A stretch of DNA of 35,699 nt. Origin: Ferroacidibacillus organovorans (GTDB lineage: Bacteria > Bacillota > Bacilli > Alicyclobacillales > SLC66). The stretch covers positions 62,001 through 97,699 of the forward strand of contig NZ_LSUQ01000008.1 of assembly GCF_001642725.1 (NCBI RefSeq). The letters are read 5' to 3'. Shown one piece after another: positions 3,001-35,699 of this stretch. Every line of letters begins with the position of its first letter. Position 1 is the first letter of the stretch. A program made the position numbers.

Positions 3001-6000
3001 TATTCTTTACAGATGGTTCTTCAACGTACTGTACCCACGTATCTCCATACGGTTTAACCCGTATGTTTATTGTTTTCACCGCATGAACAAAATGAACGAT
3101 ACTTTCCTCCAGAATATCCAGGCGAATTTCTTCGTTCCCCATAGAGGTTCCCGTTAAATTGTAGATTGGAGAAGATGGATTCAATAACTGCATCGTTAAT
3201 ACGCCAGCTTGTGAACTGTTCAGTTGCTCGTACTCGACCTCTTCTGTAAGATGTTGTTTCATAAACTCCCTCCTCGTATAGTCAATTACTCCGACGCTCC
3301 CATAATTGGAACACCTGCATTTCGAAGAGTACCCCGCAAGTACAGGAGTGATCCGCCTATTACTATAATGCCCATGACAGAAAAGACAATCGTTAGATTC
3401 AGATTAATCATAAGCCATCCGAATATCAGCATTCCCAACGGTTGAGATAGAGTAGATGCCGCACCTAACGCACCAAACACCCTCCCTTGGACGTCTGCGG
3501 GAGTAACTCGTAGTGCAACGGTATTTGTAGTTGCGTTCAGAATAGCAACAAATAGACCACTGCGCTGCATCGACAACTTTTTACTTTCCGATACACGTAC
3601 GAAGAATAGACTCACCGATGAGACTATGTACGATAGCCCGTTGAATGCAAACATAAAGGGAGCACCAAGTAACGACAATATAGTGCCGCCCCCGAATAAT
3701 CCCGCTATACCTGCGACAGATGAACCCGATTGATTCCATGCCATAGCTTTATCCATCTGAGAGTTAGGTACAATCTTAGGCATCAATGACATTTGAGCTG
3801 GATAAAAAACCGTTCCTATTAGTTCTGCAAGCGGAATTAGAAACAATATAATCATGAAATTCCGGCTGTTTACAACATGGAATATTGTTATTGAAAACAG
3901 TGCCAAGGCGACAATGCCTCGCAGGAAATCCGCAACAATCATAGTGCGGCGTTTATTCCACCTGTCTACAAGTACACCGATGAATAAACCAGCCAAGCCC
4001 GGTAATGTTTGAACTACTCCAGTCAATGTGAGATCATATTTAGATCCTGTCAATTGTAGGACATACCACGGTAAGGCAATTAGGTAGAAGTTGTTCCCAA
4101 CCATTGAAACTATCTGGCCACTGAAGAGTATCAAGAAGTTTCTGTTACGCAATAACACCCTTCCACCTCATTTCCTTTCATAACCGGGCTCACACGTTAT
4201 TTTATGAAGTGCGGAACTGAGTATTCCTTAAAAGAGGGCGGTTTCCATTTGCTGCCTCCAGATCGATTTTACCACAATATTCACACTGGATCTAAAAAAA
4301 CGTCGAAAATGTTGGAACATTAAACTCAACACTACAGAATAGATCGCAATGGTGGGCATCGCAAAGAAAGGCAAGGGTGCCCCTTCGTATCGAACACGGT
4401 GAAAGAAGTTCCTACCTAAATCACAACTCCATTACACTCTTGATGATTCTTACCCTTTACCCCTACCGCCTATCAGTTGTACGATTTGCCGGGACAGAAT
4501 ACGTACTTGCTAAAGCGTTCTATAACGTTTGTTAGTTGTCATACCTTTGCGCTCTGATTAGCCCCGGTCATATTGAGGAGAATTCAGCTCTTACAGCAAC
4601 GGGTCTCACACCCGAACCGCACATGAGAGCTGTGTGACGACGTCCAGTTTGAATCGGGCGATACCCAAACTTATTCTGCTTCCGTCTCAAGTTCTTACCG
4701 CAGCAAACTCATAACCAACACAAAATCCTATGGTACGCCCCTATCTATTGTTGCCTGGCACCGCGTCCACGAGATTTTAAATAGAGTGTTCGCAGCCAAC
4801 TCGGGTGGCGGAAGGCTGGCAAGCGGCATTGTCAAGGCTGCCCTACGTCGGCCACCCACAATGCCGCTGGCGCTTAGTTAAAGTTCATGTGTCTCTGGAC
4901 GTGCGTGTCGCTGACAATTCTGGTGCCCTGGATGTAGGGTCAAGCAGGCTTAGCTGCATAATGTGTTCACCCTGCGCGGCACACCTTGGCTAAATTGTAT
5001 ACCTCTCGAATAGCCTCTTCGGAGGGAATCTCCTGTTCAGAGCCAGCAATCTCCGCGTGGTGCTGAATGTACGCATTCATTTCTCGTTCTGTTAACCCCC
5101 CCCCGATATGCTAACGAATCTATATTCGTTGGTCACCGCTTCCAGGTGACGAACTTTCGGCAGAGTTCGTCAGCTAGGCTGCCCGACGAGAATAAGCACC
5201 ATCGGTGCCATCCAATCTTCGCGGAAAGTCAATAAAAAGCGTATTTCCTGCAACATGGCTCCGTAACCGGTGGCTTCGTCCAAGATAATGAACGGCGTCT
5301 TCTCGTCCTGCTCGTACATGTCTAGCAGTAATTCCTAGCATTGCCGTTTCACCTCGGTTTGGTCCAGTTTTTAGGGTCAGACACCCGACATGCTGTGGCA
5401 AAGAAAAATTCCACCAGCACGCGTCAGCGCCTTTGGCACGACGCGCCCACCAAGCTTTGGTTCCTTCAGCTTCAATGTCGGATTACGCACGAGAAGATCC
5501 TCTTCTACCAACCATTTGAACTGGCTTTTGTAGCCCGCACTTTTGTACGAGACTGCTCGGTTACATATGCATGTGCTAATGCAGATGTTCCCACAAACGT
5601 TCTAACGTGATCGTATAAATCTCGACGTCGTCGATGTCTCGAATCAGTAGGTTATATTGCAACCGGTATGCCCGGATGGCATAGGGATAATACCTCCCCT
5701 GTACGCGGAGGTCAGATGCCCGTTTGACGCATTACGCAATCGCATGAAAGGTCCCCCTTCAGAGACGCAATCAATGAGAGGCTGCCCAGTACCCTTTCAC
5801 ATGAGAAACAAAGCAGCAAAGAAGAGAATCGTCGCCAACAGAACAAAGACAGCCACGGGCATACCCGATTTGGTATCCATTTGTAGCCATCGAACCTTGA
5901 ACTTTTTTACCACGGTGCTGTAGACCTTGAGCAAGAACAGAGCCAGCCACCAAATCACAAGCGTGGGCAACACGCCAAGTGCTGCCCCATAGACCATTGC

Positions 6001-33000: not shown

Positions 33001-35699
33001 CCTTGCAACAACGGCTTATTGTTTCTCCCTCTGGCGAAATGAATCATCAGGTGTTAGAGGATGCGCTTTCCGCAGAAACGCTCGTGGCAGAGTCAGTTCG
33101 AGCGTCCCTAAACGGTGAACGGCTCCAAAGCACAGACGTCGAATGGCTCCTCTGCCATCCGTTCCACCGTGCGATGCTCGGTGAATCGACGCCGCGCCTT
33201 GGCCTTGAACCCAGTTACCAAATCGCCGTCCGAGGAGAACGAGTCCTGCTTCGACCGCGTAAGTCACTGCCAATCCTCGTAGCGGGCGACACCGTGATCG
33301 AGGAACGGTTGCGTACACTGATCGTGCACCACCAAGATGACGGGGCTCGGCAGAGTTGGCAGACGTTTTTATTTCTGGTAGATGTTCCCGAAGACGTGAC
33401 TGACATTGGACAGGAGTGGCTGTACCGCCTCGATGAACTGTCTGACCCGGTGGAGTGCAGCATTCACCTGGAGATTGAAGCGCCACACACAGCGGCGGCA
33501 GGGCTTGAACGAAGCCGCAAGGCGCTCAAGGACCAGCAGCGGGAATTTGTCGAAGGCACCGGCGACCTGCCGCTCACCCTGGAATGGGCCGGGGATCGCG
33601 GACGGCTGCTTGAACACAAACTGCAGCATGGCATGCCACTCGTCCACGCAACCGTCACATTCGCCATCTTCGCACCAACCCGCGAAGAGCTCGAATCCCG
33701 CGCGACTCAATTCACTCAACTGTGCAGCACCCTACGTCTGCGCATCGTGCGTTCTCCTGGTGATCAGACACGTGGCTTTCTCGACACAATGCCTGGCACC
33801 GACATGGAGAAGAAACCATGGTCGATCCCGATGGACCCTGGTTATCTGGCAGCGGGCGTTCCGCACGGCAGTAGGGACGCTGGGGACCCGACCGGTGATT
33901 ACATTGGCCGCACACGCCAAGGCACACCTGTACTGCTTGATCTTGCAAGGCCCATGTCTCGGGAACTGAACCGAAGTGGGGCGGTCGGGATCGTGGGGAC
34001 ACTTGGCGGCGGCAAATCGGTACTCAAAAAACTTCTCTTCTACCTCGCCTACAACCGAGGTGGAAGCATTTTTTCCATTGATCCAAAAGATGAGGACGGA
34101 TGCTTCAAGGAACTGCCCGCTATCGCGAAAGGGCTCACGATCCTTCGACTCTCGGCAGGTTCGCACACACAAATCAACCCGTTTCGCTTGGCGCAAAGTG
34201 ACGAGCGAAGTCACGCCATCGCGCTCGACTATCTGAGTCTTCTACTTGACGGCCAGCGCAACGACGAGCGGGCTGACGTCCTCATGGATGCGGTGGAACG
34301 AACGTTTGCCACCTCCAAGCGGGATTTGTTCCAAGTCATGACTGAACTCCAAAAACTAAGTACAACCGAGGGTCACGAGGCGATGCGTGTCGAGGCTAGG
34401 CGTTGTCTGACCCGGCTTCAGGGTTATCAGAAGAGTCCGTACGGACGGCTCGTCTTCGCGCGGGACAATGGCGTGAGTGCCTTGCCGGACACTCCTTTCG
34501 TGGTAGCGAGTCTGGCGGGACTTCCACTCCCAAAGCGCCTGCCTGGCGAAACGGGCAACTTCACCCCAAACGAGCGCTTTGGTGTCGGGATGATGTTCCT
34601 CATGGCGGCGCTTGGTCGTGAACGCATGTTTCATTCCGCTCCCGGTGGACTGAAGCTATTTGGCATCGATGAAGCCTGGCTTTTGCGCTCGTTCCCGGAA
34701 GGAAGGCAGTTGATTGACGAGACGGTACGCATGGGTCGCTCTTTCGGCGTCGTCCCCATTCTCGTCACGCAAAACCCTGGCGACATTGCCGAGGAGGAAC
34801 TGCGCAACAACCTCGGTTCCATCTTCTGCTTTCGCACCGAGGATCCGCGCGCCAGCCGTGACAACGCGATCCTACTGGGACTCGACCCGAATGAGGCGTC
34901 GCTGTGGCAGGAATTCCGCAGCCTGCGCTCCGGGGACTGCTTCTTCAAGGACATTGAAGGCCGTGTCAGTATGATCCACGTTGATCCGACGCCAGACGAC
35001 TTGCTGAACGTGTTCAACACCTCTGTGGATGGAGGTCAGCCATTATGAAACAACGCAAACGATGGATGAGCTGGGCTGTTATCATCGTGTTCCTCCTCTG
35101 TATCGTAGGAACCGTGATTGCCACCTCGCCCTCTGCTTTCGCTGCGACGCAGGCGCAACCGCCTTCGATGGTCAATCAGATTCTGCCGACCGAACAACAG
35201 ATCGGCGTATCCACCAATGCGACGCCGACATACCGAACCTATCCGCCGGACCGATATGCATTCGACCTCGGGTACAACCTCGTTACCTGGGAATGGGGTG
35301 GACTGAAACCGGATCTGAACGACCCGATCCCGTTTCTCGGCAACGCCATCGCCAGTTGGATTTTCATTGGTTCCGGTTTCATCACGCGCTTTGGCATCTT
35401 CCTGGCGGAACTCGGCTTTCACACCAACCTTGTCAACGACCAGTTGGCCGCCGTCACGCCGCTGCTCATCGGGCTGCGCCAGAGCCTGTTCGGGAGATTT
35501 CTCCCGTTCAGTCTCATCGCGCTTGCGTTCTGGGCCGTGAAGAAGGCGATGGTCGATAACCAGCCCACGCGGGTCTGGTCAGGGGTACTCGCCAGCGTGG
35601 CCGTTCTCGCGGGCGGGCTTTTCTTTATGGCGAACAGCGGTCCCGACATCCGGTTTCTCTCCACCACCATGGATCAACTGTCACAGGTGACGATGGGGG

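Follow-up and report, generated by a model that had tools for sequence, protein, structure and literature searches.

A Tcp-like integrative element with a Tad/Flp pilus operon and a c-di-GMP-I riboswitch in Ferroacidibacillus organovorans

Extent of the element and its transfer genes

The window analysed, a stretch of 35,699 nt from contig C8 of the acid-loving Gram-positive bacterium Ferroacidibacillus organovorans (Alicyclobacillales), holds an integrative element of ~39.7 kb that occupies positions ~5300–35699 and continues on contig C69, where it runs in descending coordinates from 11369 to ~2089. Gene families were assigned by Pfam and NCBIfam profile searches of the window and C69. The element has three parts: a minus-strand Tad/Flp operon; a regulatory block in which a c-di-GMP-I riboswitch precedes the gene for an orphan OmpR-type winged-helix protein, along with regulators of the XRE and RinA-like types and a peptidase resembling ImmA; and Tcp/MPF_FA-like transfer genes, with a large serine recombinase last.

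Five related copies were found in four other genomes, and relatives such as G001a, G001b and G051 helped to define the limits. The approximate left end is marked by the decayed remnant of an Xer-like tyrosine recombinase gene (5300..5720, minus strand), where ORF reading of the window revealed no long frame; the gene is intact in G001b (a frame of 257+ aa) and fragmented in G001a and G051, and DNA similarity to all three reaches ~5422 and, beyond an internal deletion, further. On the right, the limit at ~2089 of C69 places PDDEXK_2, a 372-aa gene and Mrr inside the element. The approximate limits (~5300–5420 and C69 ~2089) lie outside the span given in a preliminary description (C8:67797–97698 with C69:11368–5872) on both sides.

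Transfer genes occupy the plus strand. An orphan Dam-type DNA methyltransferase (26100..26897; PF02086, 112 bits) precedes a TcpA-like coupling protein of the FtsK/TrwB type (26894..29239; TrwB_AAD_bind, 33 bits; FtsK_SpoIIIE, 23 bits), a putative relaxase (Replic_Relax; 29263..30375; PF13814, 60 bits), a Dcm-type cytosine-5 DNA methyltransferase (30245..31573, true start near 30347; PF00145, 206 bits), a TcpE-family membrane protein (31870..32583; PF12648, 51.5 bits) and a VirB4/TcpF-like ATPase (32580..35048; AAA_10, 174 bits). The last matches the TcpF model NF052333 across its whole length (176 bits) and has its true start, MKCPVLYYEQ, at 32580; in-frame stops reported in VirB4 matches lie before it. 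At the contig end is the N-terminal part (35045..35698) of a VirB6-analogous membrane protein that NCBIfam assigns to the CD3337/EF1877 mobilome family; its earlier RDD label was not reproduced. C69 supplies, in order, the C-terminal part of this protein, an SLT+M23 hydrolase, DUF7678, the large serine recombinase and PDDEXK_2. The proposed joining of C8 to C69 could be corroborated, since the two halves form one continuous frame in G001a, with ~2 codons between them, lie side by side in G001b, G002 and G051 as well, and match positions 8–207 and 295–424, respectively, of a single NCBIfam model.

Gene content and the serine recombinase agree with the previous assignment to the Tcp kind with a full Tad module, except that the VirB8-like TcpC gene is absent. 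In sister elements, this gene follows Replic_Relax, a junction at which it is missing here. PF12642 was detected in the host genome only on contig C63 and not in the element, and tblastn with the C63 protein gave no match in the window or C69; full-length TcpC genes were found by tblastn in G051, G001a and G001b, and G002, a genome of another family, shares the TcpC-less arrangement. The missing TcpC makes autonomous transfer of the element doubtful. C63 carries a second Tcp module, in which metabolic genes take the place expected of the Tad half, and no second TadA was found in the genome.

The pilus operon and the regulatory block

The Tad/Flp operon, 15 tightly packed minus-strand genes, would build a thin type IVc pilus. 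Its first gene encodes a 507-aa secreted protein with a signal peptide (18902..20425), whose homologs occur in the distantly related elements G008 and G033 (31–35% identity) and in G028 (44%), with none found in the distant G007 element. It is followed by genes for a conserved protein of 550 aa that contains a proline-rich linker (16865..18517), had no matches in an atlas search and has homologs (27–30%) beside VirB4 in the distant elements, and a 426-aa conserved cytoplasmic protein (15482..16762; 41–65% identity in relatives) without a family match in Pfam or NCBIfam or detectable similarity to TadZ. A TadZ/CpaE-like ParA-family ATPase (14278..15504; AAA_31, 60 bits; ParA, 51 bits) and a SAF-domain CpaB/RcpC-like protein (13514..14281; PF08666, 33.8 bits; TIGR03177 CpaB, 35.9 bits, under cutoff) come next, and then the TadA/CpaF-like secretion ATPase (12207..13517; PF00437, 43.6 bits; TIGR03819, 109 bits, under cutoff), with CpaF as its closest solved structure (1.6e-15), ahead of FlaI and VirB11. 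The TadB position, after TadA in all relatives, is taken by a polytopic, membrane-like protein without a Pfam match (11282..12217), and the conserved position that follows by a TadC-like platform protein (10461..11273; PF00482 T2SSF, 24.3 bits, just below the cutoff of 25.2).

Four small pilin-like genes follow. The Flp-type prepilin (10190..10390; ~66 aa with an inferred GTG start) carries the motif AEGG-GMMDEY, and its previously noted conservation held up, as GG(M/I)MDE(Y/F) is present in the copies of 6/6 relatives. A second pilin of 98 aa (9870..10166), with (G/A)-NTAEEN followed by a hydrophobic helix, is likewise found in 6/6 relatives, at 60–98% identity. The other two were recognized from their sequences as pseudopilin-like: one of 150 aa (9345..9797) with a hydrophobic N-terminus, whose homologs in G008, G033 and G007 are neighbours of the coupling-protein gene, and one of 171 aa (8833..9348) with a leader ending in RAEGG before a hydrophobic stretch, which lacks a Pfam match, is kept in close relatives and shows 30–35% identity in distant ones. 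Beyond them lie the genes for a surface protein of 814 aa (6387..8831; Big_1, 46 bits) and for a TadV-like prepilin peptidase (Peptidase_A24; 5797..6339; PF01478, 30.7 bits, cutoff 26.5; 34–78% identity across relatives). The surface protein, probably an adhesin, has Ig-like (Big_1/invasin) domains and is anchored to the membrane at its N-terminus; its middle region varies between relatives. The Tad/Flp module is complete, as had been claimed.

Between the pilus and transfer genes lies a canonical c-di-GMP-I (GEMM-I) riboswitch on the minus strand (22909..23004, that is, C8:84910–85005; RF03167, 63 bits; RF01051, 69.3 bits). It occupies the same place in 4/4 close relatives tested (67–72 bits; 5/5 copies including its own), and the alignment shows covariation and a conserved anti-SD:SD helix. 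Since the aptamer is followed by this SD-sequestering helix, without a terminator, the riboswitch would gate translation of the gene directly downstream, which has a readable ATG and SD and encodes an orphan OmpR/PhoB-type winged-helix regulator of 133 aa (22439..22840, minus strand; Trans_reg_C, 57.8 bits). This protein lacks a receiver domain; in NCBIfam, it matches response regulators only over their C-terminal, DNA-binding region. The winged-helix gene is convergent with that of a double XRE-type HTH regulator (21813..22493, plus strand; HTH_3, 89 bits in two stretches), and any control of the pilus operon by the riboswitch would therefore be indirect; the riboswitch first described between the modules stands, but with a regulator gene rather than the pilus operon as its target. 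The remainder of the block comprises a minus-strand XRE-type HTH regulator (21469..21756; HTH_3, 50 bits) with a promoter-like site upstream (21804–21775), a RinA/ArpU-like late-transcription regulator (20857..21321, minus strand; TIGR01636, 22.6 bits, under cutoff) with a terminator-like site after it (20730–20703), a 532-aa protein in which Pfam recognizes a class I SAM methyltransferase domain (23031..24629, on the riboswitch strand and upstream of it; 60–72% identity in relatives) and a plus-strand ImmA/IrrE-like metallopeptidase (24914..25339; Peptidase_M78, 24.4 bits, cutoff 22).

Related elements and the linkage of pilus and transfer genes

Collinearity with relatives, noted previously, was evident in G001a, G002 and G051, where 33–36 of 39 element queries matched in the same order, and in G003 from VirB4 to the Tad end. 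The best collinear relatives had been placed in another genus, which is correct but understated, as they belong to another family (f1 versus f2). Flanks differ between genomes, and six copies with different flanks (the present one, G051, G001a, G002, G003 and one of G026) keep the Tad–Tcp adjacency and orientation; in G001b, the halves are ~60 kb apart with ordinary metabolic genes between. Compared with the congeneric G051, identity is 99% for the RecA core, 85% for VirB4, 74% for TcpA and 52% for the peptidase, versus 84–87% for RecA and up to 87% (VirB4), 89% (Dam) and 89% (TadA) in genomes of the other family. With RecA so out of step with the element genes, the element is, by sequence comparison, mosaic and mobile. 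The nearest relatives also differ by half, being G051 for Tad genes and G002 for Tcp genes.

Across 64 genomes of the order, the earlier count of 20 with the TadA ATPase proved threshold-dependent (40 at E ≤ 1e-10, 27 at E ≤ 1e-30). At E ≤ 1e-40, and with eight contig-end fragments set aside, 18/34 full-length TadA-like loci have a VirB4-like gene on the same contig, at a distance of 12–82 kb, in genomes that are kin and not independent samples; in the six assemblies of four contigs or fewer, this holds for 12 of the 13 loci. Seven full-length loci in about five genomes (G027, G028, G038, G057, G062, G065) had no VirB4-like match, and neither the regulators nor Tcp genes appeared within the 40 kb read around the G028 Tad module. 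Tad-only and Tcp-only modules both occur. Outside the order, TadA-like matches are rare (3/366 other genomes of the class), and no clear VirB4 linkage was found for these three.

In the distant elements of G008, G033 and G007 (TadA 35–37%, VirB4 29–30% identity), Tad and transfer genes are interleaved on one strand, in the order VirB4, VirB6-like, ..., TadC, pseudopilins, coupling protein, Replic_Relax, Ig adhesin, ..., TadZ, SAF, TadA, TadB. Genes of the GGDEF/EAL/HD-GYP type are carried by distant relatives (29–37% identity), with GGDEF, HD_5 and EAL genes in the G008 element; the G028 Tad module includes a GGDEF gene, and plasmid pAACI02 an EAL gene. c-di-GMP is thus a recurring theme of these elements, and the host genome itself has 10 GGDEF proteins and eight c-di-GMP-I riboswitches. 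Control by c-di-GMP is typical of adhesion pili generally, a point against the mating reading.

Possible roles of the pilus

The data support a Tcp/MPF_FA-like element that carries a serine recombinase and in which a c-di-GMP-I riboswitch lies between the transfer genes and a complete Tad/Flp module. We consider it fairly probable that this is one integrative conjugative element whose pilus module has long been inherited together with the rest in this lineage of elements and is not casual cargo, and that attachment timed by c-di-GMP aids mating-pair formation. The coupling protein, relaxase, TcpE, VirB4/TcpF-like ATPase, VirB6-analogous protein and SLT+M23 wall hydrolase of the right half would effect Tcp/MPF_FA-like DNA transfer, and the large serine recombinase integration and excision. 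With c-di-GMP gating the winged-helix regulator and presumably marking the sessile state, the pilus, if assembled, would bind donor cells to surfaces and neighbouring cells, and mating pairs may then form more readily, with a predicted effect on transfer. Both the direction of the switch and an action of this regulator on the operons for the pilus or for transfer are inferred. The preliminary description had advanced the mating role with a reserve that still stands; the interleaving of genes seen in distant relatives makes that role likelier than the earlier reading could show.

Counted against the main reading is the arrangement of the Tad genes as a divergent operon with its own regulators. 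This, the intact Tad-only modules in genomes without a VirB4-like gene, the Tcp module without Tad on C63 and the movement of tad loci as single horizontally acquired loci mentioned in PMC6668835 would fit a Tad operon that is adaptive cargo, serving adhesion or biofilm formation (e.g. on mineral surfaces) under c-di-GMP control while the element only spreads it. We regard this as possible but the less probable course, given that three distant elements have Tad genes interleaved with those for the coupling protein and relaxase, and that the Tad–VirB4 linkage is still present at 29–37% identity. Far more improbable is a pilus for DNA uptake in natural transformation, by analogy with the role reported for the Micrococcus luteus Flp pili, named in PMC5696575 and listed as PMC4322843: profile searches of the window and C69 revealed no ComEA/ComEC-like competence genes among the element's families, and the pilus genes are associated with conjugation genes of the export type.

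The decayed tyrosine recombinase gene at the Tad end, intact in G001b, is as expected of an accreted island, and the ~60 kb between the halves in G001b, the lone Tcp half on C63 with metabolic genes at its border and the different nearest relatives of the halves could likewise point to a ~20-kb Tcp ICE lying in tandem with a ~20-kb Tad island formerly equipped with a tyrosine recombinase of its own, joint movement not being required. Such a composite seems unlikely in view of the constant adjacency and orientation in six copies with different flanks, their common regulatory block and the interleaved order in distant relatives. It is somewhat less doubtful that the element is a defective remnant, incapable of its own transfer without TcpC and at best mobilized by the genome's second Tcp module: PF12642 is confined to C63, the tblastn searches were blank here with full-length genes in G051, G001a and G001b, and the tyrosine recombinase gene is decayed. 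Nonetheless, the other transfer genes are all open frames, the VirB4 stops preceding the true start, and the occurrence of the TcpC-less form in G002 suggests that this form has spread.

Passages in reviews describe Gram-positive conjugation as relying on adhesins, not pili (PMC12857230, PMC6199540), in favour of the cargo reading. Since Gram-positive transfer is generally described without pili, it matters that the element unites DNA-transfer genes, adhesive-pilus genes and a c-di-GMP RNA switch. Against the cargo reading, plasmid pAACI02 has a TadZ-like/SAF/ATPase set downstream of VirB4, with two hypothetical genes between, the tra regions of B. thuringiensis pHT77 and of a plasmid from Paenibacillus sonchi hold similar SAF/TadZ-like/T2SSE/small-pilin blocks, and the same pairing is mentioned in PMC5696575 for Cutibacterium, in C. 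acnes plasmids that carry a tad locus together with FtsK-, VirB4- and TcpC-like genes.

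Gene content and extent of the element

The host genome is a 3.03-Mb draft in 98 contigs, and the window forms the final 35.7 kb of contig C8, beyond which the element continues on contig C69. Pfam and NCBIfam scans of long ORFs bore out the gene list of the preliminary description. The Tad half occupies the minus strand between 20425 and 5797, and its genes read like one operon because the intergenic gaps are mostly overlaps or shorter than 110 bases. At the 20425 end lies the gene for a secreted 507-aa protein, followed by those for two conserved unknown proteins of 550 and 426 aa. 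The rest of the operon encodes a TadZ/ParA-like protein (AAA_31, 60 bits), a SAF (CpaB-like) protein (SAF, 33.8 bits; CpaB model TIGR03177, 35.9 bits, under cutoff), a T2SSE ATPase of the TadA/CpaF type (PF00437, 43.6 bits; cutoff 24.9), a membrane protein at the TadB position with no Pfam match, a T2SSF-like TadC (24.3 bits against a cutoff of 25.2), an Flp prepilin and another small pilin, a pair of pseudopilin-like proteins, an Ig-domain protein of 814 aa and, reaching to 5797, an A24 prepilin peptidase (TadV-like; PF01478, 30.7 bits; cutoff 26.5). The nearest solved relatives of the ATPase are CpaF, then FlaI, then VirB11 (TIGR03819, 109 bits, under its cutoff of 373), and TadA-like proteins 80–88% identical to it were found in named Alicyclobacillus genomes, which in the search labels belong to family f2 and the host to family f1 of one order. 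Both TadC and the TadB-position protein are polytopic and keep their position in relatives. In Flp prepilins the processing motif is G/XXXXEY; here it reads AEGG/GMMDEY, precedes a hydrophobic helix and, in keeping with the conservation claimed for it earlier, is retained in six of six relatives. The two pseudopilin-like proteins, candidates for TadE and TadF, have hydrophobic N-termini, the 171-aa one also with an AEGG leader, and neither matched any family in Pfam or NCBIfam. For the 550-aa protein an Atlas look-up yielded no usable match, and the 426-aa protein was ruled out as a second TadZ, its similarity to TadZ being undetectable. The site between these two genes is a cargo slot that holds ~10 kb of other genes in one close relative (G003). 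In another (G002) it holds an OLD-family nuclease gene (AAA_15 plus TOPRIM; L022:1298–3499) and a UvrD_C fragment (L021:19394–19963), a pair that we take to be Gabija-like.

The Tcp half is encoded on the plus strand from 24.9 kb, with genes for an ImmA-like peptidase, an orphan Dam methyltransferase (26100–26897), an FtsK/TrwB-like (TcpA-like) coupling protein (TrwB_AAD_bind, 33 bits, cutoff 20.5; FtsK_SpoIIIE, 23 bits, slightly under cutoff), a Replic_Relax putative relaxase, an orphan Dcm methyltransferase (30245–31573), TcpE (PF12648, 51.5 bits; cutoff 29.9), a VirB4/TcpF-like ATPase (AAA_10, 174 bits) and a polytopic, VirB6-analogous membrane protein of the CD3337/EF1877 family, whose gene leaves the end of C8 and both halves of which match the family model, under cutoff. 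The true start of the VirB4-like gene is at 32580, overlapping the tcpE stop, and the TcpF model NF052333 aligned over residues 2–805 of 813 (176 bits, under its 'exception' cutoff). Its homologues in the first of two copies in Alicyclobacillus sp. ALC3 (G001a) and on contig C63 of the host were rejected as pseudogenes, since their stops fall upstream of the true start. On C69 follow, on the minus strand, an SLT+M23 hydrolase gene (SLT_2, 67 bits, with a weak M23 match), a DUF7678 gene, a large serine recombinase gene (C69:5872–7581; Resolvase, Recombinase and Zn_ribbon_recom; 82–88% identical in relatives) and a PDDEXK_2 gene. By tblastn no VirB8-like TcpC was found in the window or on C69, and PF12642 matched in this genome only on C63. 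At 30313–30347, the spot of tcpC on C63, in the congeneric genome G051 and in both ALC3 copies (G001a and G001b), the relaxase gene runs nearly straight into dcm; the tcpC gene is missing in G002 too, and G003 retains just its final ~64 codons.

A second, related Tcp module lies at C63 4354–14575 (M78, Dam, TcpA, Replic_Relax, TcpC, Dcm, TcpE and VirB4; 45–83% identical), with GntR-aminotransferase, PEP mutase and epimerase genes in the place expected for the Tad half. In the element itself, dam and dcm are embedded in the transfer operon, and an Mrr-type endonuclease gene with a 372-aa partner (C69 3066–4764) lies at the recombinase end; these genes may serve restriction evasion and defence.

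The join of C8 to C69, originally proposed from a membrane protein gene split between the contigs, is well supported, because its halves form one frame in G001a (~two codons apart), are adjacent in G001b, G002 and G051, and correspond to the N- and C-terminal portions of a single NCBIfam model. On C69, similarity to G051 continues to ~2089, taking in the PDDEXK_2, 372-aa and Mrr-type endonuclease genes. On the left side, similarity to G001a, G001b and G051 passes the peptidase gene to ~5422, and onward across a deletion; this stretch is a wrecked Xer-like tyrosine recombinase gene that is intact in G001b. From these similarity limits the element measures about 39.7 kb, somewhat more than the ~35 kb first assigned to it. 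The idea that the Xer-like recombinase drives a shufflon-like system was considered and discarded, as there are no repeated inverted repeats near the adhesin and peptidase genes in either the window or G001b.

No empty site from which att sites could be mapped was found in G051, where neither flank has a usable counterpart. The left flank (window 1–5300) is decayed accessory DNA without counterpart in G051, comprising the C-terminal part of a DDE transposase gene (2–835), a DsbD-like gene (1779–2384), a truncated NRPS condensation domain (2555–3262), a truncated MFS gene (3286–4158) and, after these, ~1.1 kb devoid of long ORFs. A ~78-bp palindromic repeat occurs at C69:1–78, at C8:13417–13494 and at the end of contig C83. 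In relatives it is found close to the element's PDDEXK_2 gene in G001b and G002, whereas in G001a the distance to that gene is ~9.6 kb; it was rejected as an att site because it recurs in the host genome and its distance to the element varies among relatives.

The c-di-GMP riboswitch and neighbouring regulators

Between the two halves, an aptamer on the minus strand (22909–23004) scored 69.3 bits with the parent c-di-GMP-I model RF01051 (threshold 35), and the homologous RNAs of four of four close relatives were called as RF01051 at 67–72 bits. The c-di-GMP-I-GGC variant (RF03167) was also reported by cmscan (63 bits, threshold 59). It was rejected, given the higher score of the parent model and the calls in relatives, and it is also contradicted by the pocket: at the position that we take to mark the variant, the cmscan alignment places canonical GACGCAAAGC in the RNA against GACGCGAAGC in the variant consensus. 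On these three grounds the original assignment to class c-di-GMP-I stands. The five RNAs share a fold with compensatory changes at 8 of 33 predicted pairs. In a conserved helix, a CCCU-type anti-Shine–Dalgarno segment pairs with a GGGG Shine–Dalgarno sequence. This helix, together with the absence of any terminator found after the aptamer, points to translational control. For the ON or OFF direction, single-sequence folds gave competing helices that are not kept in relatives, only the anti-Shine–Dalgarno helix being conserved.

The gene that the riboswitch controls codes for a DNA-binding domain of the OmpR/PhoB type, 133 aa long and without a receiver domain, and lies head-on to a double XRE gene. 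As the riboswitch precedes a regulator gene, its link to the pilus operon is indirect, and would run via the winged-helix regulator and perhaps also via the neighbouring XRE and RinA-like regulators. The DNA immediately upstream of the aptamer showed no promoter-like site, and the aptamer may therefore be transcribed by read-through from the methyltransferase gene.

The host genome (3.03 Mb) has eight c-di-GMP-I riboswitches and 10 GGDEF proteins; the riboswitch at C40:12076–12171, on another of its contigs, is 96 nt long, equal in length to the copy on the element. Some related Tad or transfer arrays encode c-di-GMP enzymes of their own, namely GGDEF, HD_5 and EAL proteins in a distant element of the order (G008; L029 1087–1692 and 14929–16240), a GGDEF protein in the Tad-only module of G028 (L039 15812–16666) and an EAL protein on plasmid pAACI02 (NC_013207.1 77084–77767). 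The close copies have a c-di-GMP riboswitch in place of such enzymes.

Tad and transfer genes in relatives and on plasmids

Translations of 45 ORFs were compared by tblastn with related stretches, 39 of them lying between the peptidase and PDDEXK_2 genes (one off-frame and four to five doubtful small ORFs among them). Collinear matches were found for 33 of the 39 in G001a, 33 in G002 and 36 in G051, and the VirB4-to-peptidase part is present in G003, where it reaches the contig end. The DNA flanking the copies varies from genome to genome. Relative to G051, whose RecA core is 99% identical, element proteins range from 97% (TadA) through 85% (VirB4) and 74% (TcpA) to 52% (peptidase) identity; relative to the other family, RecA is 84–87% identical, and VirB4 reaches 87%, Dam 89% and TadA 89%. 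The nearest relatives differ by half, G051 for the Tad genes and G002 for the Tcp genes. This mosaic pattern fits horizontal spread and module exchange among related elements. In G001b (L014–L019), the Tcp and Tad halves lie ~60 kb apart, with acetyltransferase, MFS transporter, aminoacyl-tRNA synthetase and other ordinary genes between them.

Across the 64 genomes of the order we counted 34 full-length TadA-like loci (E<=1e-40), setting aside eight contig-end fragments. A VirB4-like gene shares the contig, 12–82 kb apart, in 18 of the 34; nine are in drafts with VirB4 on a different contig, and seven in genomes without a VirB4-like match. In the six assemblies with four contigs or fewer, 12 of 13 TadA-like loci share a contig with a VirB4-like gene. 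The genomes in these counts are kin, and the counts are not independent. In G008, G033 and G007, order genomes with distant elements (TadA 35–37% and VirB4 29–30% identical), Tad and transfer genes are interleaved on a single strand: homologues of the 507- and 550-aa proteins (only the latter being found in G007), VirB4, a TrbL/VirB6-like protein, SLT, TadC, two pseudopilin-like proteins, coupling protein, Replic_Relax, Ig-domain protein, partition genes, TadZ, SAF, TadA and TadB. On plasmid pAACI02 of A. acidocaldarius, VirB4 is followed, past one large and one further hypothetical gene, by a P-loop NTPase/SAF/ATPase set; the plasmid also has the EAL gene and a second Tad set that includes an A24 peptidase. 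A clade at 62–63% identity (e.g. G028) has preserved the block that extends from the 507-aa gene through the peptidase gene, with GGDEF and SLT genes of its own. Within the 40 kb covered, no Tcp genes or regulators were found in the G028 module, which has an actin-like partition gene and IS elements at its borders.

Beyond the order the ATPase becomes rare. Of 401 sampled genomes of the class, 20 have a TadA-like match at E<=1e-30, 17 of them in this order; the three among the 366 class genomes outside it lack clear VirB4 linkage. At E<1e-20 the ATPase of the window matches two of 72,556 plasmids, and no plasmid VirB4 exceeds 26% identity to that of the window. The best plasmid match, from Paenibacillus sonchi (L047 582–5486), carries a ParA-like gene, a T2SSE-like ATPase gene, three tandem small pilin-like genes and genes for PKD-domain proteins. 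This block adjoins Replic_Relax, coupling protein, TcpE and VirB4 genes; its T2SSE match is sub-threshold, and it has no T2SSF or A24 match in Pfam. We regard it as a lead, not a member. ATPases of its type are found on 58 plasmids, 33 of them from Bacillus and 29 typed conjugative. On B. thuringiensis pHT77 (L048 6864–12553), a block downstream of a VirD4-like gene encodes SAF, TadZ-like and T2SSE proteins, two ~300-aa proteins and two tandem pilin-like proteins of 47–48 aa; across pHT77 and the P. sonchi plasmid, the tandem pilin-like genes specify 47–89 aa and adjoin VirD4/VirB4-type genes. The corresponding ATPase of pAW63 has been interpreted in print as VirB11 (PMC1196294; PMC9673590).

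A possible mating pilus, and comparison with known systems

The analysis confirmed the observation of the preliminary description and supported its interpretation, with corrections to the size, to the now indirect riboswitch link and to the inventory, which lacks TcpC. We favour, with some reserve, the reading that this is a single ICE in which the Tad and transfer modules have long been partners and the Tad module is under c-di-GMP control. A seemingly complete Tad set stays linked to Tcp-like genes from near-identical copies down to ~30% identity. To be counted against linkage are the C63 Tcp module of the host, which has TcpC and abuts metabolic genes (there is no second TadA in the genome), the Tad-only clade typified by G028, the split halves in G001b, and the TcpC-less copies of the window and G002.

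A role of the pilus in mating is a plausible prediction. That a Tad-type pilus was taken over by some Gram-positive conjugative elements to act as a genuine mating pilus, co-regulated with transfer via c-di-GMP, is a more tentative proposition that we hold to be somewhat doubtful. The lineage concerned would comprise ICEs and plasmids of Alicyclobacillales and perhaps the Bacillus and Paenibacillus plasmids with 'VirB11' in a SAF–TadZ–ATPase–pilin block. If the proposition is true, the textbook account of monoderm conjugation as pilus-free would be wrong for this whole lineage, and the interleaved gene order would reflect a hybrid Tad–T4SS machine. Were the pilus to aid mating, it would represent a new mode of mating-pair formation in monoderm bacteria, gene transfer would be tied to the biofilm signal c-di-GMP, and the 'VirB11' genes of well-studied Bacillus plasmids would deserve re-examination. 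If instead the Tad module is cargo only, the element remains a clear example of how an ICE can carry an adhesion organelle from one acidophile family to another. Recent reviews, in their passages on Gram-positive conjugation systems, describe these as relying on wall-anchored adhesins and encoding no pili (PMC12857230; PMC6199540). Our literature search, which covered main texts and not supplements, found a precedent in plasmids of Cutibacterium acnes and no published account of a Tad and Tcp-like pairing in Bacillota.

Thin type IV pili aid or are needed for mating in IncI plasmids (R64, TP114) and in PAPI-1 of Pseudomonas, according to the relevant parts of two accounts (PMC12857230; PMC9045228). 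As in these systems, a separate filament machine of the type IV class is encoded beside T4SS genes on one conjugative element. They differ in having type IVb pili and Gram-negative hosts, with a shufflon in R64, whereas the present, predicted system is of the Tad/type IVc kind, Gram-positive and without shufflon-like inverted repeats. Another comparison is offered by linear plasmids of C. acnes (p15.1.R1 and relatives), in which a tad locus lies beside FtsK-, VirB4- and TcpC-like genes and for which the authors, in the text on this locus, leave the link between pilus and conjugation open (PMC5696575). There too, tad and transfer genes share one Gram-positive mobile element; however, it is an actinobacterial linear plasmid, with no riboswitch reported in that text, rather than an integrated element that has a serine recombinase. 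As no Cutibacterium record appeared among the plasmid matches of the ATPase or VirB4, the C. acnes proteins are not close to those of the window.

Bacillus plasmids of the pAW63/pXO2 type have a T2SSE-family 'VirB11' ATPase within a Gram-positive tra region, as set out in the corresponding part of their description (PMC1196294), which interprets it as VirB11 and puts forward no pilus. These plasmids went unmatched at E<1e-20, so the window ATPase is only distantly related to theirs, and the stretch of pHT77 examined contains no A24 peptidase or G/XXXXEY motif. The transfer half resembles the Tcp system of Clostridium perfringens pCW3 and the MPF_FA/Tn916/ICEBs1 kind in its TcpA-like, TcpE and TcpF/VirB4-like proteins, polytopic membrane protein and wall hydrolase. 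Unlike pCW3, whose relaxase is TcpM, it has no TcpC, carries a Replic_Relax putative relaxase and has a Tad operon attached. In Clostridioides difficile, the gene for the pilin of a type IVa-like pilus stands immediately behind a c-di-GMP riboswitch, which couples pilus expression to the second messenger in a Gram-positive bacterium, as predicted here; in the present element a class I riboswitch, with a platform that looks translational, precedes a transcription-factor gene on mobile DNA. Already known are ICEs of Gram-positive bacteria, Tad pili and, in Gram-negative bacteria, conjugation assisted by pili; the present element would be a variant on these.
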